Shown here: positions 6,487 through 50,705 of the stretch, one piece after another
How the letters are laid out: each line of letters opens with the position of its first letter
Position numbering within the stretch: the first letter of the stretch is position 1
NCBI GenBank assembly: GCA_963710605.1
Contig: CAVQBA010000003.1
Location: forward strand, 1-50,705
From: an uncultured cyanobacterium
GTDB lineage: Bacteria; Cyanobacteriota; Cyanobacteriia; Cyanobacteriales; Cyanobacteriaceae
Length of the DNA stretch: 50,705 nucleotides
Reading direction: 5' to 3'
Translations under genes and position numbers: made by a program
Notes under the pieces: model-generated
Told to the model about the DNA's origin: nothing
Database searches by the model: none
The model's input: the letters and a program-made list of their open reading frames with translations, nothing else

Positions 6487-6604
6487 AACCAAGATTAAAA
6501 GTGGTCAGTACGATCGAATATCACAGATAAAAACACCGTTAATACAACTCAATTTTGTGTCTAATTTGTGCTACAATAAATTGAAAAATTCGTTTGAAAA
6601 AATC

Positions 6605-6862
6605 ATGGCTAAAGACGCTGTAATTAGAGCTAGAACAGATTCCACTTTAAAAAAAGAAGTAGAAAACATTTTAGCGAAAATTGGTTTAACACCTAGTCAA
6701 GCAGTAAACATTTTTTACTCACAAATTGCATTACATCAAGGTTTACCTTTTGAAGTCAAAATACCAAATCAAACAACAATTCAAGCAATAGAAGAAACTC
6801 AAAAAGGCGAAGGACAAAAATTTGATTCGATCGACGATCTTTTCAATGATTTAAATGATTAG
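6605..6862 (+). CDS. dinJ: Type II antitoxin, RelB/DinJ family
   Basis: IRARTDSTLKKEVE.IL.KIGLTPSQAV.IF..QI....GLPFEVKIPN; extended -10 TGCTACAAT at 6569-6577; directly upstream of the toxin. Confidence 0.88.
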   Translation: MAKDAVIRARTDSTLKKEVENILAKIGLTPSQAVNIFYSQIALHQGLPFEVKIPNQTTIQAIEETQKGEGQKFDSIDDLFNDLND

Positions 6863-8817: not shown

Positions 8818-9375
8818 ATGAGTTTAACATTACCTCGCAAGAAATTTAACCTAGAAGAATATTATCAAATAATGAATGCAGGTGTCTTGGCAGAAGATAC
8901 CTCGACAGAATTAATTAGAGGAGAAATATTTGAGATGTCACCGATTGGATTTAGACAGGCATCTTGTGTCAATAAATTAAATAGAATTTTCAGTCGAGAA
9001 TTAGGTAATTATGGTATAGTAAGTGTTCAAAATCCGATCGAACTAAGTAATAACTCTCAACCACAACCAGATTTAGTTTTATTAAAACCAAGAGATGATT
9101 TTTACTCTACTCGTCATCCTCTGCCTGACGATATTTTGTTACTAATCGAGGTAGCTGATAGCAGTATAGAATACAATCGTAGTTTGAAACTACCTCTTTA
9201 TGCTGAAAGTAAAATTTCTCTTGTATGGCTGATTGACTTAAATCAGAATTATTTAGAAGTTTATAGTCATCCTCAAGAAAATTACTATCAAAATAGGCAA
9301 AAACTATCGGTAAATAATACCGTTACTTTAATTAATCCTTGTGAGATTGAAATTCCTTTAAATCAATTATTTTAG
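8818..9375 (+). CDS. Uma2 family (DUF820) PD-(D/E)xK protein
   Basis: ELIRGEIFEMSPIG, PQPDLVLL, LLIEVADSS, KLPLYA..I..VWLIDL. Confidence 0.9.
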   Translation: MSLTLPRKKFNLEEYYQIMNAGVLAEDTSTELIRGEIFEMSPIGFRQASCVNKLNRIFSRELGNYGIVSVQNPIELSNNSQPQPDLVLLKPRDDFYSTRHPLPDDILLLIEVADSSIEYNRSLKLPLYAESKISLVWLIDLNQNYLEVYSHPQENYYQNRQKLSVNNTVTLINPCEIEIPLNQLF

Positions 9376-9378
9376 TTT

Positions 9379-10218
9379 ATGAGTAGAAACGCAATTATAA
9401 AACCTTTTTTAAAATGGGTAGGAGGAAAAAGACAACTAATATCAGAAATAGAAAAATATCTTCCTCAAAAATACGATAAATATTATGAAGTATTCATTGG
9501 TGGAGGAGCTTTATTATTTAATTTACAACCAAAAAAAGCAGTTATTAACGATCGTAATCAAGAATTAATTAATTGTTATCGAATTGTTAAAGATTATCCA
9601 GAAGAATTAATTGAAGATTTACGAACACATTGCAATGAAAAAGATTATTTTTACCAGTTAAGAGAGTTAGATAGACAGGAAGAAAAATATAAAAACTATT
9701 CTAATATTCAACGAGCTTCACGAATTATTTATTTAAATAAAACTTGTTATAACGGCTTATTTAGAGTGAACTCAAAAGGAGAATTTAACGTTCCTTTTGG
9801 TAGGTACAAAAAACCAAATATTGTTAATGAATCTGTAATTAGAGCAGTGAGTAAATATTTAAATGAAAATGAAATTGAGATTAGAACAGGAGATTTTAGA
9901 AAAGCTTTTGCTACTGTACAAAAAGAAGATTTTATTTATTTAGATCCTCCTTATGATCCTATTTCTAATACAGCTTCTTTTACTAGTTATAATCTTAATG
10001 GTTTCGATCGCAAAGAGCAAGAAAGACTAAAAAAACAAGTTGATTTATTACACAAAAAAGGATGTCAAATTTTAGTAAGTAATTCTTATACTGATTTTAT
10101 CGATCGATTATATGATGATGATTACTATCAAAAAATAAGAGTGAGTGCGAATAGGGCAATTAATTCTCAAGGAAAAAAAAGAGGAAAAGTTGATGAAATA
10201 TTGATCAAAAATTATTAG
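9379..10218 (+). CDS. dam: DNA adenine methyltransferase, Dam/DpnM (D12) family
   Basis: KPFLKWVGGK, FIGGG SAM motif, YNGLFRVN, catalytic DPPY. Confidence 0.88.
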   Translation: MSRNAIIKPFLKWVGGKRQLISEIEKYLPQKYDKYYEVFIGGGALLFNLQPKKAVINDRNQELINCYRIVKDYPEELIEDLRTHCNEKDYFYQLRELDRQEEKYKNYSNIQRASRIIYLNKTCYNGLFRVNSKGEFNVPFGRYKKPNIVNESVIRAVSKYLNENEIEIRTGDFRKAFATVQKEDFIYLDPPYDPISNTASFTSYNLNGFDRKEQERLKKQVDLLHKKGCQILVSNSYTDFIDRLYDDDYYQKIRVSANRAINSQGKKRGKVDEILIKNY

Positions 10219-18886: not shown

Positions 18887-19998
18887 TTAATTGATCATCT
18901 CAGCACTAGTAGGAGATGATGCCATTTTTTCTAATCTTTCTTGTTGGTCTTGAGTAATACAGGCTTGAACTACACTTTCGATTTTACCTTCTAGAATACT
19001 ACTTAGGTCAAAGTTTTTGTTTAAACGATGATCTGTGGCTCGATTATCTTTGTAGTTATAAGTCCGAATTTTTTCTGAGCGTGATCCTGTACCTACTTGC
19101 GATCGTCTCATGGAAGTGACAGCTTCTTGTTGTTCACTTAATTTAATTTCAAAGAGTTTAGCTCGTAAAATTTGCATCGCTCTTTCTCTATTTTTTAGTT
19201 GCGATCGTTCTTCGGTACAAAAAACTCTAATTCCTGTGGCTGATGAATCAAATCAACTGCGGTTTCTACTTTATTGACGTTTTGCCCACCTGCACCACCA
19301 GAACGAGCAGTAGTCATATCAATATCTTTAGGATCAATTTTGACTTCCACATCATCAACTTCAGGCATAATTGCGACTGTTGCAGTAGAAGTATGAACTC
19401 TACCTCCTGCTTCAGTTACTGGTACTCTTTGTACACGGTGTACACCTGCTTCAAATTTTAGTTGACTATAAACACGATCGCCTGTAATTTCTAAGACAGC
19501 TTCTTTAAACCCACCCATTTCTGCCAAGGATTCACTTAATAATTTGACCTTCCAATTAAGTGTTTCTGCATAACGAGAATACATTCTCACTAAATCACCA
19601 GCCCAAATACTAGCTTCATCGCCTCCTGTACCGGCTCTAATCTCTAACATAATATTTTTATCATCGTTAGGATCACTTGGTAGTAATAAGACTTTAAGTT
19701 TATCTTCTAATTCTTCTAATGTGTTTTCTAATTCTTCTACTTCCATTCCTGCTAATTCCTTCATTTCAGGATCGGCATTAGATTCTTTATAAATTTCTCT
19801 AGCACCTTCAATTTCAGCTTGAGTTTTTTGCCATTCTTGATATGTAATGACAGTTTCTTCTAAAGAAGAACGCATTTTGGCTACTTTTTGTAGTTCATCG
19901 GGATTAGTCGCAATATCTGGATTGGCTAATCTTCTGGTTAATTCGTTAAATGTCTCTTCTACTGATGCTAATTTTTCTAATAGATATGATTCAGCCAT
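18887..19998 (-). CDS. prfA: Peptide chain release factor 1, apparent 1-nt frameshift near 19238
   Basis: [10 protein letters not shown]1-specific PVT, GGQ and IRTYNY motifs. The two ORFs join as [25 protein letters not shown] if one base is restored at 19237-19239. Confidence 0.93.
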
Positions 19999-36958: not shown

Positions 36959-37265
36959 GGGGGTGTGGCGGAATGGTAGACGCGAGGGACTTAAGTAAAT
37001 TGAGCCTTGTAGAGGAAACTTTATAAGTGTCTGTTCTCAAATTCAGGGAAACCTAAATCAGTATAACTGATAAGGCAATCCTGAGCCAAGCTGAGTAATT
37101 CAGAAGGTGCAGAGACTCGACGGGAACTACCCTAACAGATTAAGCTGAGGGTAAAGAGAGAGTCCAATTCTTAAAACTCGATGTGTTGAGCAGTAATGAA
37201 AGTTACGGAAGGATGAAAATCCCTTGATCGTAATGGTCGTAAGAGTTCAAGTCTCTTCACCCCCA
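36959..37265 (+). tRNA. trnL: tRNA-Leu(UAA), intron-containing
   Basis: Exons 36959-36992 and 37216-37265; acceptor stem GGGGGTG/CACCCCC-A, anticodon stem AGGGA/TCCCT, T-loop GTTCAAGT, long variable arm. Confidence 0.96.
36993..37215 (+). ncRNA. Group I self-splicing intron (trnL-UAA, IC3 type)
   Basis: Inserted U^AA in the anticodon; core blocks AAATTCAGGGAAACCT, GGCAATCCTGAGCCAA, GTGCAGAGACTCGACGG, GAGAGAGTCC; terminal G. Confidence 0.95.
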
Positions 37266-37310: not shown

Positions 37311-37438
37311 TGGTTATATAAAGAGAAAAATCGATCGAATAGTAGTCTTATTTCAAAAAAAAGTGTTTTAATGAAATAAGCCCAAGAAAACTTACTCTTA
37401 TTTCAATTTGATGCAATTAACAACAAACTTTACATTTG

Positions 37439-37624
37439 ATGAAAATGCGTGCAGGTTATTATCAAGAACAACTAGAAGGTTATAAAGCTTTTATTCCAGT
37501 AGATTTACCTCCTTATCCTCCAATTAAAATGGATGGTGAATTAGTTACTTTACTATCTAATGCCGATCGTTGTTTGGGTAGATTAGATGGAGCAACAATT
37601 AAGGTTATTAATGTTAATAAATAA
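37439..37624 (+). pseudogene. Fic/DOC family protein, N-terminal stub only
   Basis: RAGYY..QLEGYKAFIP.DLPP.PP....EL..LLS.ADR.LGRLDG is a typical Fic N-terminus; no HPFxDGNGR core follows. Confidence 0.78.
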
Positions 37625-37631
37625 TCTTTAT

Positions 37632-37698
37632 TAAGCCATCAATCAAGATTTTCTTGTTGTAGTGGAGTAGAGTTATCAATGGTTTTGATTTCGTAGCT
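37632..37698 (-). pseudogene. Displaced, diverged copy of the 3' end of the M61 peptidase gene
   Basis: 53/67 nt identical, ungapped, to 40349-40415; reads SYEIKTIDNSTPLQQENLD*WL versus SYEIKIIDNPTPQQQENFDKWL. Confidence 0.88.
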
Positions 37699-37732
37699 TA
37701 GGTTGAGTATTTTATTCGTGGTATTACATCGA

Positions 37733-38788
37733 TTAAAACTCAGTTAGTATTGATGATATTTTTTCTTTTATTTTATCTAATTCAGTTTCCTGTGTCTGAA
37801 TCCAATCTTTTTCTATTTTATTTTGAGAATCTAATTCACTTTGGTATCTGTTTTGACTTTGAAGAAATTGATTGTAGAAATTGATTGTTTCCTCAACAGC
37901 TTTAATCGCTATATCTGCCTTTTGAGAAATAATATCTTTGATTAAGTTTTGAGTTACATTTTCTACTTCAGTATGAAAGTTATCGAGATCTTTTATATTC
38001 ATATTCAGTTTAAACTTTTTGGCTATACTAGCTTGTTTATTAATATTACTCAAAATCACTTTCTGACTTAAAGTTGTCTTATAATCATTAGAATATTTAT
38101 TGGGCAAATATTCTGTAGGACTATCAAAATGCTTTTTTAAATTATTTTGAATTAACTCGCTCTTTTCTTGCCATTGTGACTTATAGTCTAAATCTAAACT
38201 ATCTAGACAATGAGTAAAAATATCAGAATAAAACAAATTTACTTCTTGAAAAATCAACTGTAGTTTTTCTGTCAACTGCTTTTTAAGTTGAATAGCTAAC
38301 TGAGTAATATTTTTATCTGATGGAGTAAAAAAAGAATCTGTTTCAAAAAGGTTAAGATTTTCTTTTTTAAACTTGTTATTACTCTTATCCCATTGAAAAC
38401 ATTTGCGTTTTAATTGTTGATATTGTTCTCGCCATGAATCTACTACAATTTCTATATTTATTTCATTTTTAATAATTGTTTGTAGTTTATTAATTCTGGT
38501 CGATTTACCCGTTAAATTACCTAATTCTTCGATAATTTCTAATCTATCCACATCGCAAATCTTAATTTTGCTTTCACAAATGTTTTTTCCTTCTGCTAAA
38601 GTTTGATAACAAGGATTAAGCAAATCTTGTAATCGTGATAAAGCTGTCTTCATTTCTAACAAGCAAGGCTCGATATTTTGCTCTAATTTATTAGCTGTCA
38701 GATTAAGTTCGACAGAAGTATCTTCAATTGCGTTTATCTTTTCAATTTGATTTTCTATCTCGTTAAAAGAATTTAAATAATCTCTCAT
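37733..38788 (-). CDS. Coiled-coil protein resembling the C-terminal helical region of cyanobacterial dynamin-like proteins (no GTPase domain)
   Basis: All-helical composition; tail FYNQFLQSQNRYQSE...EKDWIQTQ is recalled from cyanobacterial dynamin-family C-termini; no P-loop. Confidence 0.5.
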   Translation of the reverse strand: MRDYLNSFNEIENQIEKINAIEDTSVELNLTANKLEQNIEPCLLEMKTALSRLQDLLNPCYQTLAEGKNICESKIKICDVDRLEIIEELGNLTGKSTRINKLQTIIKNEINIEIVVDSWREQYQQLKRKCFQWDKSNNKFKKENLNLFETDSFFTPSDKNITQLAIQLKKQLTEKLQLIFQEVNLFYSDIFTHCLDSLDLDYKSQWQEKSELIQNNLKKHFDSPTEYLPNKYSNDYKTTLSQKVILSNINKQASIAKKFKLNMNIKDLDNFHTEVENVTQNLIKDIISQKADIAIKAVEETINFYNQFLQSQNRYQSELDSQNKIEKDWIQTQETELDKIKEKISSILTEF

Positions 38789-38989
38789 TTTAAAACAATG
38801 GTTTACTTTCAATAAAATAGTTAATCAATATTTGAATGTTGAATATGGATAAATATAGACAAATTAAATTGAATAACTTTAGTCATTATTCTAAAACTAA
38901 ATTATGTAGTCTTAATTGACCATTTTAGTAAGAAAAATACTTTTGATATATGATAATGTATTAATAGAAATAAGTAAAGTACTTTTATC

Positions 38990-40237
38990 ATGCAATTTGT
39001 TTTCCCTTTAGCTATTCAACAAGGTATTAATTCTGGTGTTTATAAAACAGTGATTAGTAATGCAGGAGTACCCTTAGGTATAGCGAGAAATGCAGTAACA
39101 GGACAATTTGTCGGTCATGCAGTACAAGCCGTAGCAACTCCTTTTTTAAGTATAAGCTCTTTACTTACAGGAGGATTAAGTTTGTTAGGAGACGGTATAT
39201 TAGGTTTTCAAATGAATAGGGGATTTCAAAAAACATATGAGAGGCTAAATCAAGTACAAAACAGTTTGGGTGTTTTACAAGCTACGACTTCATTAATTGG
39301 GGTAACTTCTGTTGCAGGAGTTGCATTATCTGCGGTAAATTTACATCAAACCTTAAAATTAAAAAAAGAAGTAGAAGAATTAAAATATCAAGTTAAAGAT
39401 GGATTTATTCAAGTTTTAGAAGAAGTTAGGTATATCCCCGATACCATCAAGTTTGACAATCACCGCACTATTTTAATGATGGCTTATGGGGAATTTATTC
39501 AAGCAACCAAATTAATAAAGTTGGCTTTAAGTACAGAAAATAAAAACGCTAGATATAGCACTTTAAGTAATGCTCAGTTGCATCTAAGTAACGCTAATAA
39601 CGCTTATAGTAAACCTGAATTGTTTGAGGCTACCACCGCCGCTGCTCAATTGCGCCGTTTAGAATGTGCATGGATGATTGAACAAACTCAAGCTATCAAT
39701 TTTCAATTAATGAATGCTCCAGAATCTGCTAGTCATTGTCTTCACGAGTTGCAACAACAAATACAAACTCAGTTTCTAGAGTTAATTGACGGTTGTAGTT
39801 GTGAAGAAGAATTAGCTTTTCTTTACCCTGAGATTACTCGAATTCAGACTCAAGATATACCTATTTTCGACACATGGAAGAATCAAATTGATTATGTGCA
39901 ACAACTTAGTGTTTTAGAGAAAGAAGAAATAAATAATTTAGCGAGTAATACTGATTCTGTAGAAGAAATGGTAACTGAAGAATTCGATTTAAACTCACTG
40001 CCTATTGAAGTTAATCAATATTGCCAATCAGAGCAACTATCCCATTACGAATCTCTTCTAGATCAATTAAGATATACTGTTAATACTAATATTCGTCAAG
40101 ATCATTTAGACTACATTAAAGATAAAGCTGTCTCTACTAATCTTCAAGGAATTGTTCCCGTAAATTTAGAACAAGTTTCCGATTTAACGATCGCTAATAT
40201 CTATAATTACTTAAAAACCCAAAAATCATCTGTTTAA
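38990..40237 (+). CDS. Hypothetical cyanobacterial protein with Gly/Ala-rich hydrophobic segments and a helical C-domain
   Basis: 415-aa ORF; GVPLGIARNAVTGQFVGHA and LGVLQATTSLIGVTSVAGVALSAVNL segments followed by a coiled coil. Confidence 0.75.
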   Translation: MQFVFPLAIQQGINSGVYKTVISNAGVPLGIARNAVTGQFVGHAVQAVATPFLSISSLLTGGLSLLGDGILGFQMNRGFQKTYERLNQVQNSLGVLQATTSLIGVTSVAGVALSAVNLHQTLKLKKEVEELKYQVKDGFIQVLEEVRYIPDTIKFDNHRTILMMAYGEFIQATKLIKLALSTENKNARYSTLSNAQLHLSNANNAYSKPELFEATTAAAQLRRLECAWMIEQTQAINFQLMNAPESASHCLHELQQQIQTQFLELIDGCSCEEELAFLYPEITRIQTQDIPIFDTWKNQIDYVQQLSVLEKEEINNLASNTDSVEEMVTEEFDLNSLPIEVNQYCQSEQLSHYESLLDQLRYTVNTNIRQDHLDYIKDKAVSTNLQGIVPVNLEQVSDLTIANIYNYLKTQKSSV

Positions 40238-40337
40238 TATCACTTTAATTATTAAGTTAATTTTTAGGTATGATACTTCGCCCGACAAAACAAGTCAAAG
40301 CGTAAGCATCAAAGATTAATAATATTTATTGAAGTAG

Positions 40338-42089
40338 TTATTTAGTACTAAGCCACTTGTCGAAATTTTCTTGTTGTTGTGGGGTAGGATTGTCAATTAT
40401 TTTGATTTCGTAACTAGATGGTTTAGGAGAATCAAGGGTAACAGAAAATGTTTGTAATTCTTCTTGATGGAAAATAGTCAATTGAATTGTATCTCCTGCT
40501 TGATAATCTTCTAGTCTTTGGGTTAAATTATCACTAGTAACTCGATAACCATCGATTGCTAACAATTCATCACCTGCATCGATACCTACTGTACCCGCAG
40601 GAGAATCGGCATCAACGAAAGTTATTTTATCTGTACAATCTTGTTTAGTGATGGTAATACCTAAATAAGGCACAACTTTTTCGTCATCTTCTTGTTTTGC
40701 TTCTAAGGTTAAGCCAAAAGGTGCGAGATATTCATTAAAAGGTAACTCTGTTGTTGTTTGTAAATACAGATGGAAAAACTCAGTTAAATCAGTTTGGGCA
40801 ATCGTTTCTATTTCGGTGATTAATTGCTGAGGAGAATAACCAATTTCGTCCTTACCAAATTTTTGCCACATTACTCTCATTACATCATCATAAGAATTTT
40901 CATTATTGGTATTATCTCTAATAATTAAATCTAAGAAAAGAGCGATAAATTGTCCTTTTAAATAATAAGAAATTTGATTGTTATTACTATAAGTATCTCG
41001 GCGATATAATTTAATCCAAGCATCATAACTAGATTCGGCTAATGGTTGAATTTTACGACCACGAGTATTGAGATATTGACTAATATCTTTACTTAATAAT
41101 TTCAAACATTCTTGACGATCGTATATTTTCGATCGAACTGGTAAAATCATATCATAATAACTAGTAGAGCCTTCACAAAACCACAAAGAAGGAGTGTAAT
41201 TTTCTTGATCATAATCAAACTTTTCTAGTGCTTGAGGACGTATTCTTTTTACATTCCATAAATGGAAGAATTCATGCGTTACTAGTTGCAGAAAACGGTT
41301 ATATTTATCTTTGTCTTTAAAACCGAAACGAGGATAATTCAATACAGTACAATCTTTATGCTCTAAACCACCAAAGCCACTAGCAGATAAATGTAACAAG
41401 AAGAAATAATTATCATAAGGCAAACCACCAAACATTTCCGATTCAGTTTGAATGATTTTTTTAGTATCTTCTATAATACGATCGATTTCGATATTTCCTT
41501 CACCCCAAATTACCCATTGATGTGATTTATCTTCTACGGTAAAATTATGTTTAGATTGTAAACCAATTTCAAATGGACTATCAACTAAAGTATCAAAATT
41601 TTCGGCAATAAATGTATTTTTTTTCGTAGATACTTGTGGTAAAGCCGTGGTGATTTGCCAATCTGGGTGGGGAGTTTCGATCGTAACTGAAATAGGAATA
41701 TTTTCGTAATTAGGAATATAAAAAAATAAAGCCGCTCCAGTCAAAAAACCATGAGTTGCATCTAAATGATTTGTTCTAACTGTCAATTCATTAGCATACA
41801 TTTGATAGCTAATCGTTATTTTGTCGTCGTTATTAGTTTCAATTAACCAACTATTTTTAGCTATTTTTTTAGTAACTAAATCTTTATTTTTGAGTGTGTT
41901 TTTCGCAGAGAAGTTTTGTAAATGTCTAACATATTCTCTCACTAAATAAGAGCCAGGTGTCCACACAGGCATTCTTAAATTTAAACTGGTTTCTTGCCAA
42001 TTATCAATCTCTAATTTGACGTTGAATAAATGACTTTCTGGTTGAGGCATCGAAACATGATAATTTATACTTATTCCTTCTTGGTTCAT
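40338..42089 (-). CDS. M61 family glycyl aminopeptidase with PDZ domain
   Basis: MPVWTPGSYLVREY, GGLEH, HEFFH, LWFCEG.TSYY, ISYYLKG; PDZ motifs SPA..GI..GDELLAIDG. Confidence 0.93.
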   Translation of the reverse strand: MNQEGISINYHVSMPQPESHLFNVKLEIDNWQETSLNLRMPVWTPGSYLVREYVRHLQNFSAKNTLKNKDLVTKKIAKNSWLIETNNDDKITISYQMYANELTVRTNHLDATHGFLTGAALFFYIPNYENIPISVTIETPHPDWQITTALPQVSTKKNTFIAENFDTLVDSPFEIGLQSKHNFTVEDKSHQWVIWGEGNIEIDRIIEDTKKIIQTESEMFGGLPYDNYFFLLHLSASGFGGLEHKDCTVLNYPRFGFKDKDKYNRFLQLVTHEFFHLWNVKRIRPQALEKFDYDQENYTPSLWFCEGSTSYYDMILPVRSKIYDRQECLKLLSKDISQYLNTRGRKIQPLAESSYDAWIKLYRRDTYSNNNQISYYLKGQFIALFLDLIIRDNTNNENSYDDVMRVMWQKFGKDEIGYSPQQLITEIETIAQTDLTEFFHLYLQTTTELPFNEYLAPFGLTLEAKQEDDEKVVPYLGITITKQDCTDKITFVDADSPAGTVGIDAGDELLAIDGYRVTSDNLTQRLEDYQAGDTIQLTIFHQEELQTFSVTLDSPKPSSYEIKIIDNPTPQQQENFDKWLSTK

Positions 42090-42222
42090 CAAAAATACCC
42101 TTTCTTCTTTTTATTACCTGTATCTTTTTATTTTAATGCTACTGCACAATTTATAATTGGTAAATCGATCTCTACAATATGTTAATAACGTGATAATTTT
42201 CAATCCAAATACTTAAAACACT

Positions 42223-42330
42223 CAACCACTTAACCACTCAACCACTCAACCACTCAACCACTCAACCACTCAACCACTCAACCACTCAACCACTCAACCA
42301 CCCCTAACCCCTCCTTCAAAAGGAGGGGAA
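42223..42330. repeat. CAACCACT octamer tandem (about 10 copies) plus GC hairpin
   Basis: Tandem 8-mers at 42223-42302, then CCCCTCCTTCAAAAGGAGGGG. Confidence 0.85.
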
Positions 42331-42414
42331 TTTGATTTAACTGTTTTAGCTAACTTATTTACTGCTATACAATCAATTTAAGGTTAATCGGTTTATCATC
42401 AGTTAATTAATTTT

Positions 42415-43272
42415 ATGAGCAAAACAGCATCTATTTCTGTCGTTAAAAATACAGCATGGCAAGGAAAACTCGATTTAGTTTATCATCATCCTAAAGATAC
42501 AACCAAAATCAAATCAGTTTATACTCAAGCACCATTTAAAATACAAAGACCATTTTATCCTGAAGGTAAGTCTATTTGTCATACTGTAATTATGCACACC
42601 GCAGGAGGAATTGTCGGTGGTGATATTCTACAGCAAAATATTCACCTTTTACCTAATGCTCAAGTTTTACTTACTACTCCTAGTGCTAGTAAAATTTATC
42701 GCTCAGCTCAAAAAAAAGCGATTCAAACAATAGAAATAACTTTAGAAAAAGATAGCTATTTAGAATATTTACCGCAAGAAACGATCGTTTTTAATCAAGC
42801 TCAATTTGCCCAAAAAACCCTAATTAAATTAGCTGAAAATAGCAGTTTTATAACTTGGGAAATTAATCGTTTCGGACGTAGTGCTAGAGGAGAAGATTTT
42901 AGTGAGGGAAAATGGCGTAATAGTTTAGAAATTTGGCAAGGGCGAAAACCACTGTGGATTGATCGTAAATTAGTTGTCGGAGAAAATAATCATTTTTATA
43001 GTTTAAATGGTTTAAATAGTAAACCAGTAGTTGGTAGCTTGATTTTTATACCTAGGGTGGAAGTAAAAGATTTGATCTTATCAATGAGAGAATTAATCAT
43101 GGTAGAATTTCCCGATCGACTAGTTGTTGTAACTAAAATACAAAAAGGTATATTATGTCGTTATCATGGTGAGTCAGTTAGTGATTGTCGGCAGATATTT
43201 ATTAGTCTTTGGCAACTGTTAAGAAAAACTCAAAACTTCGATCGTAATTTCACTTCAAGAATTTGGAATTAA
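42415..43272 (+). CDS. ureD: Urease accessory protein UreD
   Basis: WQGKLDL, APFKIQRPFYPEG, HTAGGIVGGD, TTPSASKIYRS, LEYLPQETIVF, GRSARGE.F. Confidence 0.93.
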   Translation: MSKTASISVVKNTAWQGKLDLVYHHPKDTTKIKSVYTQAPFKIQRPFYPEGKSICHTVIMHTAGGIVGGDILQQNIHLLPNAQVLLTTPSASKIYRSAQKKAIQTIEITLEKDSYLEYLPQETIVFNQAQFAQKTLIKLAENSSFITWEINRFGRSARGEDFSEGKWRNSLEIWQGRKPLWIDRKLVVGENNHFYSLNGLNSKPVVGSLIFIPRVEVKDLILSMRELIMVEFPDRLVVVTKIQKGILCRYHGESVSDCRQIFISLWQLLRKTQNFDRNFTSRIWN

Positions 43273-43274
43273 GC

Positions 43275-43381
43275 TATAGCAAGTAACGGCTAAGGCGTGG
43301 ACATTTCAATTAAGTTTCCCCCTTTTATAAGGGGGATTAAGGGGGATCAATAACGTGCTAATTATCTCTTTTTCTGCTATA
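43275..43381. mobile_element. MITE-like element (TATAGCA...TGCTATA) with GC hairpin
   Basis: Same terminal motif and internal CCCCCTT..AAGGGGGATTAAGGGGG as the copies at 4020 and 46095. Confidence 0.55.
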
Positions 43382-43826
43382 AATTAATTTTTTCGAGCAT
43401 TTTTAAAAATACGATAAATTAGAATTACTAAAGCCATTACTATAACAATCAAATCTTTAATCCTGAACTTTCAATACTTCGACATGAGAGGTAGTCAAAA
43501 CTCAGCATAAATTGTTAATTATTAATTATTCATTGTTCATTGTTCATTGTTCATTGTTTATCGTTTTGTAAAGAATAAGGTCAAAATAAAACTTTTGAAT
43601 TATCATTTAGATCTCAGTAAGTCATTAATAGTCTTTTGGTTATTTGACCGATCGATAATTATCAAGATAATTGCGTGAAAATACTTATTTAATATTTTTT
43701 TAGTTTTTAATAAAAACTCGATATTATAATAATAACTTTATTATTAATATTCAATCTTAGATCTTGATAAAATAATTACTGATAAATTGTTGTTTATGAT
43801 TTAGTATTAAGCTAAAAAATACGATC

Positions 43827-44492
43827 GTGAAATATGACATTCGTTATCGCCCTGCCTTTGCCACAATCTTTGTCACACTCGCCCCCGGAGACAAAATGAC
43901 AGCAGAAGCTGGTGCAATGGTTAGTATGGATGGAAAGGTGTCAATGACAACAGAATTTTCAGGTGGTTTTTTCCCGGGATTGATACGTAAGTTTTTCGGT
44001 GGAGAATCTTTGTTTGTCAATGTTTTCAGTAATCCCACTAGCACTCCTTTAAATGTAGTTTTAACTCAAAACCTGATAGGTGATATAGAAGCGATAAAAC
44101 TAGACGGTAAGACAATTTGTTTACAACCAGGTGCTTATATTGCTCATACTCCAGGGGCGAAAATGGGTGTAAGGTGGGCAGGATTTGCTAGTTGGTTTGC
44201 AGGAGAAGGTTTATTCAAACTCCAATTTAGTGGTAGTGGTCGTGTAATGTTTGGTAGCTATGGCGGAATTACCCAAAAAGAAATTAACGGTGAATTTGTA
44301 GTTGATAACAGCCATTTGGTAGCTTACGATTCAGGTATCAAAATGAATGTCGCTTTATCTGGTAACTTAATTTCCTCAATTACCTCTGGTGAAGGTTTTG
44401 TTAATAAACTAAAAGGTAACGGTACAATTTTTCTGCAATCTCGTAGCGTTGGTGGTTTGGTTGGCTTTTTATCTCCTAAAGTAAGAGGATAA
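43827..44492 (+). CDS. TIGR00266/AIM24 family protein 1
   Basis: AEAGAMVSM, GGESLF, GEGLF, VVDNSHLVA; GTG start. Confidence 0.9.
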   Translation: MKYDIRYRPAFATIFVTLAPGDKMTAEAGAMVSMDGKVSMTTEFSGGFFPGLIRKFFGGESLFVNVFSNPTSTPLNVVLTQNLIGDIEAIKLDGKTICLQPGAYIAHTPGAKMGVRWAGFASWFAGEGLFKLQFSGSGRVMFGSYGGITQKEINGEFVVDNSHLVAYDSGIKMNVALSGNLISSITSGEGFVNKLKGNGTIFLQSRSVGGLVGFLSPKVRG

Positions 44493-44499
44493 TTAATGA

Positions 44500-44582
44500 A
44501 CAATTAACAATTAACAATTAACAATTAACAGTTATTCTCAATTCTCAATTCTCTTACTGAACAATTCTCAATTCTCAATTCT
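44500..44582. repeat. STRR-type heptamers (ACAATTA; ATTCTCA)
   Basis: Tandem 7-mers. Confidence 0.75.
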
Positions 44583-44589
44583 GAAAGTT

Positions 44590-45267
44590 ATGGATATAGA
44601 TATATTACAACAACCAGATAGTACGATCGCAAAAGTTACCTTATCAGCTAATGAAGAGTTAGTCTCCGAAGCAGGGGCGATGATAGCGATGAGTGAATTT
44701 TTAAATGTTAGCACCACCCTCAGAAAAGGAAAAGGAGGAGGGATTATGGGAGGCTTAAAACGAATGTTAGCAGGAGAATCTTTATTTTTAAGTGTTTATC
44801 GTTGCTATCAACCCCAAGGTGAAATATTTTTAGCACCAAAATTGTTGGGAGATATAATAATTTACCAAATGCAAGGCAAAGAATTAGTAGTCCAATCAAC
44901 CACTTATTTAGCTTCTGCCTCAGGAGTAGATATAGATTTAGGTTTTACAGGTTTTAAATCGGTATTTTCAGGAGAATCTGTTTTTTGGCTAAGTATAACA
45001 GGTTTTGGTCCAGTAATTTTAAGCTCGTTTGGTGGTATTTATGAAATAGACGTTGACGGTGAATATGTAGTCGATACAGGGCATATTGTTGCTTTTGAAA
45101 GAAGTCTTGATTATAAAATCGCTAAAGCAGGAGAAAGTTTAATCGGCTCTTTTTTAGGTGGAGAAGGTTTAGTTTGTCGCTTTTTTGGGCAGGGAAAAGT
45201 TTATTGTCAAACCCATAATTCTCGTGGTTTTGGACGTACAGTCGGTAGTCGTCTTCCTCCCAGATGA
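44590..45267 (+). CDS. TIGR00266/AIM24 family protein 2
   Basis: EAGAMIAM, AGESLF, VVDTGHIVAF, GGEGLVCRF. Confidence 0.9.
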   Translation: MDIDILQQPDSTIAKVTLSANEELVSEAGAMIAMSEFLNVSTTLRKGKGGGIMGGLKRMLAGESLFLSVYRCYQPQGEIFLAPKLLGDIIIYQMQGKELVVQSTTYLASASGVDIDLGFTGFKSVFSGESVFWLSITGFGPVILSSFGGIYEIDVDGEYVVDTGHIVAFERSLDYKIAKAGESLIGSFLGGEGLVCRFFGQGKVYCQTHNSRGFGRTVGSRLPPR

Positions 45268-45364
45268 TAATAAGAGTTAAGAGTTAAAAGTTACAAGACG
45301 AAAAAATGTTGAGTGTAAAACCTTTTGATTAAACCAAAATTTGTAGTTGTTATATTTTTTTATT

Positions 45365-46072
45365 ATGGATATTTTAAAGTCGGATATTAAATATAGAATC
45401 GAACATAATCCCGCTTATGGTTTTTTGATTTTAGAGTTAGAAGCCAATCAAAAAGTCATTGTTGAAGCAGGTGGTATGGCGGCAATGGATACCTCAATTA
45501 GGATGAAGTCTAATATGCGTGGTGGCTTAGGTAAAGGAATTGGTAGAATGTTAGGCGGTGAATCTTTGTTTTTAAGTGAATTTACCGCTCAAGGAATGCC
45601 AGGGGAATTATATATTTCGCCTGCTGTGCCTGGGGATATTACTCATTATTATTTAAACTCAAATTGTGGTTTAATTGTTCAGTCTTCTGGTTTTGTTGCT
45701 TGTGGTGAAGAAATTGATATTGATACAAAATTTCAAGGGTTTAAAGGCTTTTTTAGTGGTGAATCTATATTCTTATTAAAAGCTACAGGTAGAGGTGATT
45801 TTTGGTTTAGCTCTTATGGGGCTATTATTGAAGTTGATGTTAGTAATAATTACGTTGTCGATACGGGTTATATCGTCGCTTTTGAAGATACTTTAACTTA
45901 TAATGTAGAGGTATTCGGGGGGCTTTCTTTTCGTGGCTTAAGAACAGGTATATTAGGCGGAGAAGGTTTAGTTTGTCGTTTTAGCGGTCAAGGAAAATTA
46001 TGGTTACAATCTCGTAATTTATATCCTTTACTTAACTTTCTTAATCCTTTTCGCCCTGTTAAAAGTGATTAA
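45365..46072 (+). CDS. TIGR00266/AIM24 family protein 3
   Basis: EAGGMAAM, GGESLF, VVDTGYIVAF, GGEGLVCRFSG. Confidence 0.9.
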   Translation: MDILKSDIKYRIEHNPAYGFLILELEANQKVIVEAGGMAAMDTSIRMKSNMRGGLGKGIGRMLGGESLFLSEFTAQGMPGELYISPAVPGDITHYYLNSNCGLIVQSSGFVACGEEIDIDTKFQGFKGFFSGESIFLLKATGRGDFWFSSYGAIIEVDVSNNYVVDTGYIVAFEDTLTYNVEVFGGLSFRGLRTGILGGEGLVCRFSGQGKLWLQSRNLYPLLNFLNPFRPVKSD

Positions 46073-46094
46073 TACTAATCAATATTTATAGATA

Positions 46095-46203
46095 TATAGC
46101 AATTATCACCATTATGAAAGACAAAGAAATCCCCCTAAATCCCCCTTTGTAAAGGGGACTTATTGATTATTAACTGTACCTCACAAGTATGGGAAACGCT
46201 ATA
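46095..46203. mobile_element. MITE-like element with TIRs of about 29 nt and GC hairpin
   Basis: TATAGCAATTATCACCATTATGAAAGACA / TGTACCTCACAAGTATGGGAAACGCTATA; internal CCCCCTAAATCCCCCTTTGTAAAGGGG. Confidence 0.65.
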
Positions 46204-46457
46204 GTGGTTTTAATTAAGAATGAAATAGTATTAATAATCGTAAAAATGCAAAACTCTTAATTCACCTTGCAATAAATTGACAAGGCTCATAAAATAACGT
46301 TCAATGAATTGAACTTCAATATTAATACTAAAAAAGTATCTGATTCGATCGATTTGAAACAACTATAACTAATAATTTTTTTAACAATTCCTAATTCTCC
46401 ATTCTCCCCGAATAATTGCAAAGCAAGAATTCATCTCCATTCTCAATTTTGAAAGCC

Positions 46458-47273
46458 GTGCCTTATAATTCACCAATTAGCGATCGTAATCCAGAAACAA
46501 ATAACAAACAACTATTGACCATTATTGGTTTATTTTTGGGTGTAACTTTATTAATCATTGCCAGTTTATTTTTTTTAGTTAATCAAGTAATTAATTTTAT
46601 TCCTGTAAGTGTTGAACAAAAATTAGGAAAAGCTGTTTTTGCTCAGTTAGATTTACCTAAAGAAAAACGAGATTTGACAACCGAAAAAAAACTCAATCAA
46701 TTATTAGATAAATTAGAAGCGACAATACCGAATGATAGTATTGCTAAAAGAGATTATTCACTCACCTATATTAAAGAAGACACTGTCAATGCTTTAGCTA
46801 TCCCTGGAGATAGAATTATTATCTATCAAGGATTATTAGATAAAGTAAACTCAGAAAACGAATTGAGTATGGTTTTAGGGCATGAAATTGGTCATTTTGC
46901 TAATCGAGATCATTTACGTGGTATAGGTAACTTATTATTAGTACAAATACTAATTTCCTTTTTTCTAGGTCAAAATGATTTTATCGATACAGGAGCAAAA
47001 ATTGCTAATACGGTAGTTAATGCTCAATACTCTCAAAACCAAGAAGTAAAAGCCGACGAATTTGGCTTACATATATTAAACGATTATTACGGACACGTAG
47101 CAGGGGCAACAGACTTTTTTCGTCAATTAGAAGCCCAAACACCTCGTCAAATTGCTTTTTTATCTAGTCATCCTGTACCCAAAAAAAGAGTTAAAAAACT
47201 AAAAAAACTAATTAAAAGCGAAAATTATAATTTAGGAAAAAAAACCCCTCTTAATATGAAGAGTAAGGAGTAA
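46458..47273 (+). CDS. M48 family metallopeptidase, membrane-anchored
   Basis: N-terminal TM segment, NALAIPG, HEIGH, YSQNQEVKAD, LSSHP; GTG 46458 is a plausible start. Confidence 0.88.
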   Translation: MPYNSPISDRNPETNNKQLLTIIGLFLGVTLLIIASLFFLVNQVINFIPVSVEQKLGKAVFAQLDLPKEKRDLTTEKKLNQLLDKLEATIPNDSIAKRDYSLTYIKEDTVNALAIPGDRIIIYQGLLDKVNSENELSMVLGHEIGHFANRDHLRGIGNLLLVQILISFFLGQNDFIDTGAKIANTVVNAQYSQNQEVKADEFGLHILNDYYGHVAGATDFFRQLEAQTPRQIAFLSSHPVPKKRVKKLKKLIKSENYNLGKKTPLNMKSKE

Positions 47274-47440
47274 TAAGTAAAAAGTAAGGAGTAATAAGTA
47301 AAAAGTAAGGAGTAATAAGTAAGGAGTAAGGAGTAATGAGTAATGAGTAATGAGTAAGGAGTAAGGAGTAAGGAGTAATAAGTAAGGAGTAATAAGTAAG
47401 GAGTAATGAGTAAGGAGTAATGAGTAAAAAGTAATGAGTC
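47261..47440. repeat. Long degenerate heptamer array (RAGTAA[G/T/A]), about 25 units
   Basis: GAGTAAG/GAGTAAT/AAGTAAG units overlapping the M48 stop codon. Confidence 0.9.
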
Positions 47441-47744
47441 AATTATTTAGTTCTTCATTGTTAATTATTCATTGTAAATTGTTCATTATTATCTGTAGTT
47501 GTCTTTTCGCCGTGACATTTGATGTTGTGAGTCTAGTTATTATCTAGTATGATTGTCAAGGCTTATGTAATTTTAACGATCGAAACGAAACATATTTTCT
47601 TGAGAGAATCAACGATTGATCGTTTATTTACCATCTTCAATTTATGCTGAGCAGTGTCGAACGAGCGATTAATGTTAGTTAATCAAATAAGATCAAGTTC
47701 GTAATTATCAATTATCAATTATCAATTATCAATTGTTTTGCCAT

Positions 47745-49421
47745 ATGACTTTTTCATCTTCTAGTCAAACTAAATCTTACCCCACCATTAGACCAATTAC
47801 GGCTACCTCAATTGATGGGATTACTTTTATCAAACAAAAACTATATGCGATCGATTCACGTAATGGTTTTATCTTAGAAATAAATCCCTCAACTAGTGTC
47901 ACGAAAATAGTTAACGATACCGATTGGGAAGACTTCATCGGGGCAAAAGGTTTATGTTTTAAAGATGAAAAACTTTGGTTTACTAGACAAGAAAATGTTT
48001 ATGTTTGCGAAATAAATTGGCAAGAAGATACCTTAAAAATAACTTCACCACCACAATATTGTTTTAGTGTCTCCGCCTCTTGTTCAGGAATAGCTATCTA
48101 TCATAATACAATTTATCTAACTACCCAAAAAACAGGTCATATCCTTGTTTATTCGGTTACAGGAGACGAAATAACTCAGTTTTATACACCGGGGATAGGT
48201 GCAGAAAATATTACCATTAAAGACGAAGAAATATGGTTGTCTGATGTTATCGAACAAAGTGTTTATTGTTTGGATAGATCGACAGGTACAACCAAATTCA
48301 GCTTACTCACTCCTTTTGAATCTCCTAGTGCGATCGCTTTTTATCATGACGAAGAAGAGCAAAAAGATATATTATATATAGCCTATAGCGATCAAGAGCC
48401 TTATATTCGTGATAATCCTAATGCCGAACCAAATCATGAATTATTATACCGAGATCGTACCTTTATTCATCCTTTATATTTCCGTTACGACGAAGAAAAT
48501 AAATATACCCTTACCAATGGCTTTTTGCTAGAAATGACTTATGTTGAAGAAATTTCGCCCTTAGACAAAATAGAAATAGAAGATTTAGAATGGCGTATTG
48601 CTTTACCGACGCAAAGTGCCAGACAAAAAATCAAAAGTATTGAGCCAGTTGGTTTACCTTATACTGAAGAAAATCATGATGGTCAAAAAGTCGCTGTATT
48701 CAAATTTCCTAAATTTACCTCTAACCAACGTTTTGTTTTTGGTTGGCGAGTAATATTAGAAGTGTGGAGTATCAAATATCAACTCAAACCTTATGATTGT
48801 GAAAGTTTACCACCTCTTCCTCAAGATTTTGAAGGTAAATATTTAATTGATGATGATAACTTGATGATGAATAGCGACATCATTTTGCAAGCGGCAGAAA
48901 ATGCTCGTGGAAGAGAAACAAACTTGTTACGTAAGATGTATAGTATCCGTAACTATGTTTATGATCATCTTACCTATGGCATCAAACCTCATATCGATAC
49001 CCCCGACATTGTACTTAAAAGAGGCGTTGGTTCTTGTGGTGAGTACTTGGGGTTATTGTTAGCTTTATCTCGCTTAAACGGTGTTGCTAGTCGTACTGTA
49101 GGGCGTTATAAATGTCCTGTCAAAGTCCTTCATTTTGGTATTCCTTTAGTTCCTGATTTCAATCATGTATGGATGGAGTTTTATCTACCTAGTATTGGTT
49201 GGTTGCCGATGGAATCTAACCCTGATGACTTAGATAATGGTGGCCCCTATCCGACTCGATTTTTTATGGGTTTGTCTTGGTATCACGTAGAAATGGCTAA
49301 AGATACTGCTTTTGAAACGATTCAAAGTAAGGGTGAAAAGATTAATAAAGAAGTAACATCGATCGGGCAATTAGCAATTAATCATGTGACTTTTAATATC
49401 ATTGAAGAATTACAGCCGTAA
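47745..49421 (+). CDS. Transglutaminase-like domain protein with N-terminal beta-propeller-like region
   Basis: GSCGEY (Cys), NHVWMEFY (His) and GWLPME in the C-terminal domain. Confidence 0.85.
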   Translation: MTFSSSSQTKSYPTIRPITATSIDGITFIKQKLYAIDSRNGFILEINPSTSVTKIVNDTDWEDFIGAKGLCFKDEKLWFTRQENVYVCEINWQEDTLKITSPPQYCFSVSASCSGIAIYHNTIYLTTQKTGHILVYSVTGDEITQFYTPGIGAENITIKDEEIWLSDVIEQSVYCLDRSTGTTKFSLLTPFESPSAIAFYHDEEEQKDILYIAYSDQEPYIRDNPNAEPNHELLYRDRTFIHPLYFRYDEENKYTLTNGFLLEMTYVEEISPLDKIEIEDLEWRIALPTQSARQKIKSIEPVGLPYTEENHDGQKVAVFKFPKFTSNQRFVFGWRVILEVWSIKYQLKPYDCESLPPLPQDFEGKYLIDDDNLMMNSDIILQAAENARGRETNLLRKMYSIRNYVYDHLTYGIKPHIDTPDIVLKRGVGSCGEYLGLLLALSRLNGVASRTVGRYKCPVKVLHFGIPLVPDFNHVWMEFYLPSIGWLPMESNPDDLDNGGPYPTRFFMGLSWYHVEMAKDTAFETIQSKGEKINKEVTSIGQLAINHVTFNIIEELQP

Positions 49422-49633
49422 AAAAAACTAAGTAAGAAGCATAAATAATATTACTATTAGTAATTACTTTTTGAGACACGTAAGTGATATTTTTTTAATA
49501 AATTTTGTTTAATTAAAACTTTATCAAAAAAATATATTCTGATATCTGAAAACTATTGACTTATGATTTTTATTAAAGTATCATTCGAGCAAACATATTT
49601 ATTTTTCATTGATAATAATAAGGAGCTAAAAAA

Positions 49634-50299
49634 ATGTTTTCATCTAAATTTTTCAAAAAAGCTAGTATTTTTGGTTTAGCCACTACAGCTAGTGTATTGA
49701 CTTTGGGAGCAAGTAACTCCGCTCAGGCTGCTATTTTGTCCTATACAGGTACATTTGACGGTGATGATGATGTGGATTTCTTTCCCGTCAGTCTAGCCGA
49801 AACAGGTTTTATTACTGCTCAAACTTTTTCTTATGGCGGTGGAACTCAAGTCGATGGTAATGTCGTATCACGTGGTGGTTTCGATCCTATTATTGGTATC
49901 TTAGATTCTGTTGGCAATTTGGTTCTTCAAAGCGACGATGGTACAGGAAATGGAGATCCAGATACAGGAGTAACTTACGATACTTTTATTCAAGCTAGTG
50001 ATTTAGCCCCTGGCAATTACACAGTATTTATCGCTCAATACGATAATTTTTATGACGATGATAATGCGAATGATTTTAATTTTACCGCAGACCCAACATT
50101 TACTTCAGTATTTGGCTGTAGTAATGGTCAGTTTTGTGATTTCACTGAGGCAAACAGAAGTAATGAATACGCTATAGATATTAGTAATACCGAAAATATT
50201 ACTACTGAACCTGTACCTGAACCTGTAACTATCTTAGGTTCGGTAATAGCTTTGGGTGTAGGAAGTATTTTCAAAAAAAAGCGTCAAGAAATTAAATAA
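49634..50299 (+). CDS. PEP-CTERM sorted surface protein, DVUA0089-like
   Basis: AAGGAG RBS; signal peptide ending AQA; FDPIIGILD...DDG; C-terminal VPEP, TM segment and KKKR. Confidence 0.88.
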   Translation: MFSSKFFKKASIFGLATTASVLTLGASNSAQAAILSYTGTFDGDDDVDFFPVSLAETGFITAQTFSYGGGTQVDGNVVSRGGFDPIIGILDSVGNLVLQSDDGTGNGDPDTGVTYDTFIQASDLAPGNYTVFIAQYDNFYDDDNANDFNFTADPTFTSVFGCSNGQFCDFTEANRSNEYAIDISNTENITTEPVPEPVTILGSVIALGVGSIFKKKRQEIK

Positions 50300-50323
50300 T
50301 TAAATAATTAAATAATCGTCATG

Positions 50324-50363
50324 AAGTAAGTGTACCTAAACCATCATTTGGGTACACTTACTT
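50324..50363. terminator. Long inverted repeat after the PEP-CTERM gene
   Basis: AAGTAAGTGTACCTAAA-ccatca-TTTGGGTACACTTACTT. Confidence 0.65.
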
Positions 50364-50450
50364 ACTTTAAACTTGTAGCGATCGAATCTGCTATCTTAGA
50401 AACGAAAAAAAGATTACAATCACATTTGTACATTATTAGGTACAAGTATC

Positions 50451-50528
50451 ATGACAAATATTATCAATTTTAGTGAGGCTAAAAAAAACTTTAAATCTGT
50501 ACTAGACATCTGGGAGAAATTATATTGA
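50451..50528 (+). pseudogene. Phd/YefM antitoxin N-terminal stub
   Basis: MTNIINFSEAKKNFKSVLD then a stop; upstream TGTACA (50427) and GGTACA (50439) resemble YefM operator hexamers. Confidence 0.65.
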
Positions 50529-50624
50529 ATCGATCGAAATAGAAGAATAAATAGTTAAAATTGATTAAAAACGGATCTAAATTAATTTGATTATTAATTA
50601 TGGGAGACGTCTATTAGATACAGT

Positions 50625-50705
50625 TCGATTTTTATGGGTTTGTCTTGGTATCATGTCGAAAAAATAGCTAAAGATACTCCTTTTGAAATCATTAAAAGCA
50701 AGGGC
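50625..50705 (+). pseudogene. Displaced, diverged copy of the 3' part of the transglutaminase-like gene (runs off the window)
   Basis: Aligns with 49256-49334; reads MGLSWYHVE(K)IAKDTPFEIIKSKG versus MGLSWYHVEMAKDTAFETIQSKG, with a 1-nt deletion and a 3-nt insertion. Confidence 0.9.

Follow-up and report, generated by a model that had tools for sequence, protein, structure and literature searches.

Displaced gene ends beside accessory cargo in an uncultured cyanobacterium suggest recombinase-independent insertion of foreign DNA at conserved gene edges

Introduction

Homology-facilitated illegitimate recombination is known from laboratory selections and has rarely been read from natural genomes at many loci; it reportedly occurs during natural transformation in Acinetobacter, Streptococcus pneumoniae and Pseudomonas stutzeri, in original work cited by PMC5361080 and PMC3240628. 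Islands that target tRNA or protein genes, and tycheposons, restore the end of their target gene; they rely on, or themselves encode, a site-specific recombinase that has a defined attachment (att) core. A third process, insertion with long target duplication, was reportedly described by Nobusato et al. in 2000. Here we examine two loci in a 50,705-nt stretch of DNA (hereafter the window), which is contig C3 in full (CAVQBA010000003.1) of a genome assembly (GCA_963710605.1; G000 in our genome set) from an uncultured member of the Cyanobacteriaceae. At each locus a conserved gene, encoding an M61 glycyl aminopeptidase (locus 1) or a transglutaminase-like protein (locus 2), is intact and is followed by cargo and then by an orphan copy of its own 3′ end.

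These loci resemble homology-facilitated illegitimate recombination in having one anchor beside non-homologous cargo, no dedicated recombinase, an arbitrary distal joint (a cut within yefM at locus 2) and competence genes in the same genome. They differ in that the distal joint lies inside the anchor, so that part of the anchor is duplicated and recipient DNA is not deleted. Unlike the laboratory events they are read from the genome only, and any role of transformation and RecA is putative. Integrative elements that restore gene ends also leave behind an intact target gene and, at the insert's far end, a displaced partial copy of it; here, by contrast, no recombinase was found.

Furuta, Abe and Kobayashi (2010; PMC2853133) place insertions with long target duplication mostly in naturally competent species, once in Microcystis, and describe restriction-modification units between repeats of 87–100% identity with an empty site in a sister genome. 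Like those cases, our loci have small inserts without mobility genes and direct repeats of tens to hundreds of base pairs overlapping gene ends, and one of them (H2, outside the window) carries a restriction-modification pair. Here, however, toxin-antitoxin, PEP-CTERM and unknown genes make up most of the cargo, the repeats are 68–98% identical with a synonymous bias, and no empty site was found. A further parallel comes from type VI secretion system (T6SS), Rhs and contact-dependent inhibition (CDI) loci, in which, according to PMC5361080, an incoming module displaces the 3′ end downstream and leaves strings of orphaned 3′ regions; its authors propose homology-facilitated illegitimate recombination for this displacement of effector 3′ ends. 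A glycosyltransferase gene on contig C4, with three to four orphan tails, resembles the strings described there. The same text has the 5′ part of a toxin gene as anchor, and non-homologous toxin domains with immunity genes as the displaced ends. By contrast, the hosts here are housekeeping-type enzymes, the displaced end is an allele of the working end, and there is no toxin/immunity arrangement.

The initial annotation presented this architecture as a candidate undescribed acquisition system. That claim goes too far, as publications already describe both one-anchor illegitimate recombination and insertion with long target duplication (PMC5361080; PMC2853133). We found no paper in the open-access literature describing such gene-end scars in cyanobacteria. 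What is new here is the number of loci in one cyanobacterium, the involvement of both gene ends, repeats that are allelic rather than made de novo, and a possible link between the joints and the core of the highly iterated palindrome HIP1 (CGATCG).

Results

Two conserved genes are followed by an orphan copy of their own 3′ end

Read along the M61 coding strand, locus 1 runs from gene body and working tail through 2.65 kb with two open reading frames (ORFs) to the orphan tail and the old flank. Its features are as follows.

40338–42092, minus strand: intact M61 glycyl aminopeptidase gene (Pfam Peptidase_M61_N, Peptidase_M61 and PDZ); its last ~23 codons (40346–40415) pair with the orphan
38990–40237, plus strand: cargo ORF of 415 amino acids and no known family; no Pfam or PADLOC match, and sub-threshold NCBIfam matches only
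37733–38812, minus strand: cargo ORF of 359 amino acids and no known family; no match in Pfam, NCBIfam or PADLOC
37593–37698, minus strand: orphan M61 3′ end, made up of a coding remnant (37630–37698, ~23 codons, one in-frame TGA) and ~35 nt of 3′ flank
37436–37624, plus strand: Fic-family 5′ stub (~57 of ~382 codons), converging on and abutting the old M61 3′ flank
36983–37192, plus strand: group I intron (Rfam RF00028, 92.3 bits, E = 6e-23, full model), in the resident flank on the far side of locus 1

The M61 gene is present in 17 of the 18 other family genomes searched. Its tail (40346–40415) matches the orphan (37629–37698) at 78.6% over 70 nt (blastn, E = 2.7e-9, whole genome) and at 74% over 23 amino acids (tblastn). 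Weak similarity extends ~35 nt beyond the M61 stop, giving a total repeat of 106 nt at 71% identity in a repeat search. The GC (guanine plus cytosine) content of the locus 1 cargo is 29.3%, against 33% for the genome.

At locus 2, 1.2 kb separates the transglutaminase-like gene from the orphan tail; it comprises, in this order, a PEP-CTERM gene, the promoter and first ~18 codons of yefM, and 115 nt unassigned.

47733–49421, plus strand: intact transglutaminase-like gene (Pfam Transglut_core); its tail, from 49256 to the stop, pairs with the orphan
49634–50299, plus strand: cargo gene for a PEP-CTERM sorted protein of the DVUA0089/FDP family (NCBIfam NF038127, 6e-32; TIGR04155 cyano_PEP, 5e-11)
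50406–50528, plus strand: yefM promoter region and 5′ stub (25-codon ORF at 50451–50528, ~18 homologous codons), at the distal end of the cargo
50622–50705, plus strand: orphan transglutaminase-like 3′ end, which ends at the contig edge and resumes on contig C7 (566415–566362, reverse strand) through the stop

The transglutaminase-like gene occurs in 19 of 20 family genomes, G000 included. Within its tail, 49256–49333 matches orphan positions 50625–50704 at 85% over 81 nt (E = 5e-18, whole genome), and the continuation on C7 matches at 88.9% over 54 nt (E = 4e-13), with ~32 nt of the orphan unassembled between the two contigs. A look for public reads over window positions 41000–50705 listed none. 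In the C7 part all 18 amino acids are identical and all six nucleotide differences are synonymous; the orphan as a whole has no disabling mutation, only a one-codon insertion. The PEP-CTERM cargo protein has a paralogue of 54.5% amino-acid identity at G000:C7:554630–555289, ~11 kb beyond the orphan tail. Both repeat pairs greatly exceed chance similarity, and the same gene–cargo–orphan-tail architecture, with co-oriented orphans, is present twice, as first annotated.

Each locus also has a truncated 5′ stub, which the initial annotation had taken as a shared mark. Both stubs are real. The Fic stub has no Pfam match of its own; positions 37436–37606 match the N-terminal ~57 residues, at 67% identity over 54 amino acids (E = 7e-18), of a 382-residue Fic_N+Fic ORF in the relative G040. 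The yefM stub is 83% identical at the nucleotide level, up to ~50507, to a complete yefM-yoeB locus of the congener G001, with a Pfam PhdYeFM match below the cut-off (E = 0.0037). Their positions relative to the repeats differ, and we rejected them as a common hallmark: the Fic stub belongs to the resident flank outside the repeat pair, with the group I intron beyond it, while the yefM stub lies inside the cargo. A yefM gene cut after ~18 codons at the cargo end is as expected of an arbitrary donor break.

Orphan gene ends recur across the genome with a fixed polarity

We extended the comparison to all 3029 ORFs of at least 100 amino acids in the 3.93-Mb genome (33% GC, seven contigs, estimated completeness 84.9%). 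The last 50 and first 50 residues of every ORF, together with mid-gene controls, were searched within 20 kb. Queries with the last 50 residues gave 45 rows of co-oriented orphan high-scoring segment pairs downstream versus 17 upstream (mid-gene controls, 17 and 8), and queries with the first 50 residues mirrored this, with 29 upstream and 19 downstream. Many of these rows were tandem or frameshifted paralogues.

At the DNA level, a genome self-BLAST gave 303 direct-repeat pairs lying 200–15,000 nt apart, which were sorted by ORF context. Orphan 3′-end copies (nine rows, six genes) were all downstream of the intact gene and none was upstream; two further tail orphans (T7 and T8), situated in short ORFs, were likewise downstream. 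Orphan 5′-end copies made up 12 rows, eight of them upstream. Insertion bounded by direct repeats of a gene end must yield this polarity, with tails downstream and heads upstream.

The curated set comprises 21 intervals (T1–T8 and H1–H11), of which T3 and T4 are the window loci and T5a–c belong to one gene. Self-BLAST and ORF-end classification thus add ~19 further or similar loci to the window pair, at both 5′ and 3′ gene ends; the expectation of more cases genome-wide is borne out, and the restriction to 3′ ends is not. The curated repeats are 61–592 nt long and 68–98% identical, around 0.8–10 kb of cargo. Those of T7 (a gene's tail plus the head of the following gene) and H8 (two divergent heads) span gene pairs. 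A PMT_2 glycosyltransferase gene (G000:C4:1137504–1148613) is followed by its successive orphan 3′ ends over 9 kb, between which lie ParE-like, KaiC-like/histidine kinase and Imm53 genes and a Tse2-like fragment. This locus is a repeatedly used insertion hotspot.

Some first-pass protein matches were traced to tandem or frameshifted paralogues, internal repeats or truncated large paralogues and were removed ahead of curation (C1 131990; C2 6005, 219901 and 239028/240322; C4 51534, 481374, 667698, 1018658 and 1333257; C5 266429; C6 247723; C7 258512 and 280799).

Both copies carry the mark of purifying selection

Synonymous and non-synonymous differences between intact and orphan ends were counted by the Nei–Gojobori method for 19 of the 21 intervals and the C7 continuation of T4; T5b and T5c were excluded because neither copy overlaps a called ORF. 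Pooled, there were 146.7 synonymous differences over 730 sites and 157.3 non-synonymous differences over 2882 sites, giving dS = 0.234, dN = 0.057 and a ratio (dN/dS) of 0.24. The ratio was 0.21 for 3′-end loci, 0.29 for 5′-end loci and 0.12 for the window loci, well away from the value near 1 on which the initial reading was to be given up. Two in-frame stops in total occurred in these comparisons.

With the congener G001 as outgroup, available at four loci, the orphan branch carried 15 codon changes (9 synonymous, 6 non-synonymous) and the intact branch 19 (12 and 7). Since both branches are symmetric and biased towards synonymous change, the copies are alleles whose divergence took place in separate lineages, each as part of a working gene, before they were joined. 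The orphans therefore functioned and evolved as gene ends up to a recent date. At locus 2 the orphan has the residues FEIIKSKG in common with the congener; the corresponding residues of the working tail are FETIQSKG, whose T recurs in 17 other family genomes. This fits an old tail displaced and a new tail imported, at two to three amino-acid sites of one locus.

The cargo is accessory DNA without a recombinase

Of the 155 ORFs of at least 70 amino acids around 18 loci, 123 were scanned for Pfam domains; the 32 left out included seven small overlapping cargo ORFs. Toxin-antitoxin parts (MazEF, ParE, HicA and PIN) were found in the cargo, as were an Eco47II restriction-modification pair between the 190-nt repeats of H2, a helicase-methyltransferase, pentapeptide-repeat proteins, RHS/GUN4 genes, a DUF4351 protein and three transposase fragments. 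Further cargo ORFs of T1 and T7 look PEP-CTERM-like: their C-termini match the sorting signal of the window PEP-CTERM protein, and they have no Pfam match. Cargo outside the window is typical accessory DNA. The window cargo itself (two unknown ORFs and the PEP-CTERM gene) has no restriction-modification unit; among the loci, only H2 carries one.

DUF4351 proteins are encoded at the start of the window contig (109–711, plus strand) and within the 10-kb cargo of H7 (G000:C5:272360–273256). DUF4351 is known as the C-terminal domain of Rpn-type recombination-promoting nucleases.

No integrase or resolvase domain was present among the 123 scanned ORFs, neither window cargo has a transposase or integrase domain, and no recombinase gene lies in or beside either insert within the window. 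A six-frame search with PF00589 located eight tyrosine recombinase genes genome-wide, all outside the 21 cargo intervals and the nearest of them 14.8 kb away. No serine recombinase was seen around the loci by Pfam on the listed ORFs, the scope of that search, which was not genome-wide. The loci are integrase-free in this sense, as proposed. Homologues of comEC and dprA are present, which is compatible with DNA uptake and is not proof of it. As none of the tests of recurrence, dN/dS and recombinase content spoke against it, the integrase-free reading with an imported allele holds.

Host genes and flanks in related genomes

In the congener G001 the transglutaminase-like gene ends in a single tail, no PEP-CTERM gene follows it, and its downstream flank differs (ccmK-like genes). 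G001 (67% complete) yielded no M61 gene, and four of five further host-gene ends queried had no match there. Three whole-locus queries returned orthologues, not the syntenic flank. In the relative G017 (C1:198820–204040) the M61 and transglutaminase-like genes are convergent and 1.8 kb apart; in the window they are divergent and 5.6 kb apart.

CGATCG is abundant and lies near a subset of joints

The initial annotation also listed CGATCG sites near both loci and proposed CGATCG or TCGA as a junction motif. Proximity as such is uninformative: 96 copies lie in the window, where shuffled sequence predicts 4.5, and 8449 lie in the whole genome, a density of one per 465 nt. Its commonest context is TCGATCGA, and GCGATCGC has only 708 copies genome-wide. 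At the window loci the nearest CGATCG is 129 nt (locus 1) and 89 nt (locus 2) from the orphan truncation point, which leaves the junction proposal without support there. At locus 2 homology begins at a shared TCGATTTTT.

Across the 19 independent loci the picture is different. The orphan truncation point lies within 10 nt of CGATCG in seven of the 19, neither window locus being among them, against a background of 5.5% for random positions and 4.9% near gene ends (binomial, P = 4e-5). The other three types of boundary were near the motif at three to four of 19 loci, and boundaries of paralogue-type repeats were at the background rate (17/276 and 4/56). In a positional histogram the ±10-nt bin at the truncation boundary holds seven sites and each other 20-nt bin out to 200 nt holds 0–3. 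Homology at the seven joints ends 0–7 nt past the motif, in one case exactly at CGAT|CG, and the motif is in both copies at four of these loci and in the orphan only at three. We regard this association, from a small sample of author-curated loci in one genome, as a lead.

Other features of the window

Besides the two host genes, the conserved genes of the flagged region are sufD, sufC, ureD, three tandem AIM24 paralogues and an M48 peptidase gene. ARAGORN called no tRNA at the group I intron (36983–37192); it presumably lies inside a tRNA-Leu(UAA) gene, the host gene typical of cyanobacteria. Long intergenic tandem arrays at 42200–42319 and 47219–47453 consist of 8-nt units (AACCACTC) and 7-nt units (GAGTAAG-like). 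Related AATTAAC-type heptamer runs occur at 43501–43572, 44493–44533 and 47701–47727, and inverted copies flank the first AIM24 gene.

A release factor gene (18890–19998, minus strand) is split into two ORFs of 267 amino acids (PCRF and the start of RF-1) and 96 amino acids (the remainder of RF-1), with ~20 nt between them. The split is far from the usual prfB frameshift site and is either an assembly indel or a genuine disruption of an essential gene. A Uma2-family putative endonuclease gene (8818–10215, plus strand) lies directly upstream of a gene for a D12-class N6-adenine methyltransferase, and a RelB antitoxin gene (6557–6859) has no obvious toxin partner.

Discussion

Insertion through a single homologous gene end

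With moderate confidence, we interpret both window loci as scars left where foreign DNA entered the edge of a conserved gene independently of a recombinase. Incoming DNA from a diverged relative would have carried the 3′ end of the M61 or transglutaminase-like gene as its one homologous segment, together with neighbouring genes. Host homologous recombination would have joined it through this shared segment, and its other end would have been joined illegitimately inside the resident gene end. Natural transformation is a plausible entry route. The joining may have been direct, by homology-facilitated illegitimate recombination, or it may have gone by way of a circle, formed from the fragment and then integrated through a single crossover. 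The product would be the same in both cases: gene body, one tail allele, cargo, the other tail allele and the old flank. The gene would remain whole, the insertion would be tolerated and the displaced tail would decay.

Each locus has one repeat pair and no second homologous arm, and its cargo has no counterpart beside the gene in G001 or at 18 family loci. Repeats ending at the stop or a few nucleotides past it (T1, T4, T5 and T8) fit a donor gene with other neighbours, and those running into the next gene (T7 and H8) better match the circular version.

Several observations weigh against this interpretation. Homology-facilitated illegitimate recombination is reported from experiments to give insertion-deletions. 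No empty site and no donor were found in G001, the family genomes or a metagenome scan, where the best relative of the M61 protein is 68% identical, and synteny around both host genes is not kept in G001 or at the 18 family loci. The preference for insertion over some other rearrangement accordingly draws only on evidence internal to this genome. The window repeats are short (~23 and ~55 codons), and their dN/dS is based on 27 differences. At the nucleotide level the intact and orphan copies are equidistant from G001 at three loci (82/81, 76.6/75.4 and 86.8/85.5%), so that the call as to which copy was imported hangs on the two to three amino-acid sites noted at locus 2. Some loci allow more than one reading: T2 has an IS200-like Y1 transposase as its host gene, T6 lies amid a field of decayed copies, and the cargo of H4 and H10 includes transposase fragments. 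Finally, the pattern is nearly absent from the part examined (2.4 of 3.16 Mb) of G014, a genome of another genus with 38.6% GC and one CGATCG per 1177 nt. In that part we counted 31 local direct-repeat pairs, where G000 has 303, along with a single downstream tail orphan and one head pair on the unexpected side; no CGATCG lay at the boundaries of these two. Scar abundance is therefore a property of the lineage or the genome, not a constant of the family.

Alternative explanations

One alternative is that the loci are remnants of site-specific integrative elements that carried a replacement gene end in attP and later lost the integrase with most of the element. Such an element is the textbook source of an intact gene plus a displaced end, and its replacement end would also have been under purifying selection, in keeping with the low dN/dS. 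The longest identical runs shared by the copies (locus 1, 13 nt; locus 2, 25 nt) lie inside longer diverged homology, and the genome offers its eight tyrosine recombinase genes and a probable tRNA gene 0.4 kb from locus 1. Against this stand 21 cargo intervals with no integrase, ~19 targets that would require as many specificities, repeats of 61–592 nt with differences spread throughout, and cargo as small as 0.8–1.2 kb. Nor would it account readily for the T7 repeat, which spans a tail and the next head, or for the two divergent heads of H8. On balance we think this origin unlikely.

In a second alternative the long target duplication was made de novo, for example by filling in widely staggered breaks as proposed for restriction-modification units, and the copies were identical at first. 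By the operational definition of PMC2853133 (repeats >30 bp, insert <20 kb, no mobility gene) both window loci qualify, with repeats of 70–106 nt around 2.65 kb at locus 1 and of at least 135 nt around 1.2 kb at locus 2, and H2 has its Eco47II pair between repeats. An orphan decaying from an identical start, however, should show a dN/dS of ~0.5–0.55 and an excess of changes on its own branch. The pooled ratio is half of that or less, the polarised changes are symmetric (19 on the intact branch versus 15 on the orphan branch), and 9 of the 15 orphan-branch changes are synonymous. In addition, uncorrected synonymous divergence (pS) at locus 1 is ~0.6 with a single disabling mutation, and locus 2 has none. 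We accordingly give a de novo duplication little credence.

A third possibility is local duplication followed by decay, in which no horizontal transfer took place and the orphan ends are leftovers of mostly deleted tandem paralogues. The genome is rich in tandem paralogues and in local direct repeats (303 pairs within 15 kb), and several first-pass matches did prove to be frameshifted or truncated paralogues. Yet the DNA between the copies is no duplicate of neighbouring DNA, orphan tails never lie upstream, the orphan keeps only the extreme end of the gene, and cargo GC is below that of the genome at both window loci. This explanation is very improbable.

An assembly artefact, with two co-assembled strains misjoined as false partial duplications, is extremely improbable: seven contigs at 84.9% completeness, the position of locus 2 exactly at a contig break and the hint of indel errors in the split release-factor gene speak for it, but the copies differ by 7–30%, far more than assemblers merge, the junctions share few bases at most, and misjoins would not create polarity or codon-level selection.

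Implications

Insertion of foreign DNA at gene edges on the scale of ~20 small loci does not bear out the larger proposal that this lineage builds its accessory genome in this way, which is overstated. The proposal that the HIP1 core marks where foreign DNA joins illegitimately, amounting to HIP1-guided, recombinase-free gene capture, is one that we put forward tentatively and hold to be doubtful. If it were true, the role in transformation recently reported for HIP1, Chi-like or uptake-related, would have left its footprint in a natural genome at these joints, and such capture would be highly active in this lineage and almost silent in a relative whose sites are 2.5-fold fewer. The lead echoes a 2026 paper (PMC13756078) that proposes HIP1 as an adaptation for gene transfer. 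Should the association between joints and CGATCG hold in more genomes, it would tie a 30-year-old question about HIP1 to a testable recombination outcome.

Gene-end scars of this kind are invisible to gene callers and could pass for pseudogenes or paralogues. Natural genomes with many readable scars of one-anchor recombination are scarce, and this one offers ~20. Clean polarity, combined with codon-level evidence that the copies are alleles, makes the share of this route in small-scale accessory gene gain measurable.

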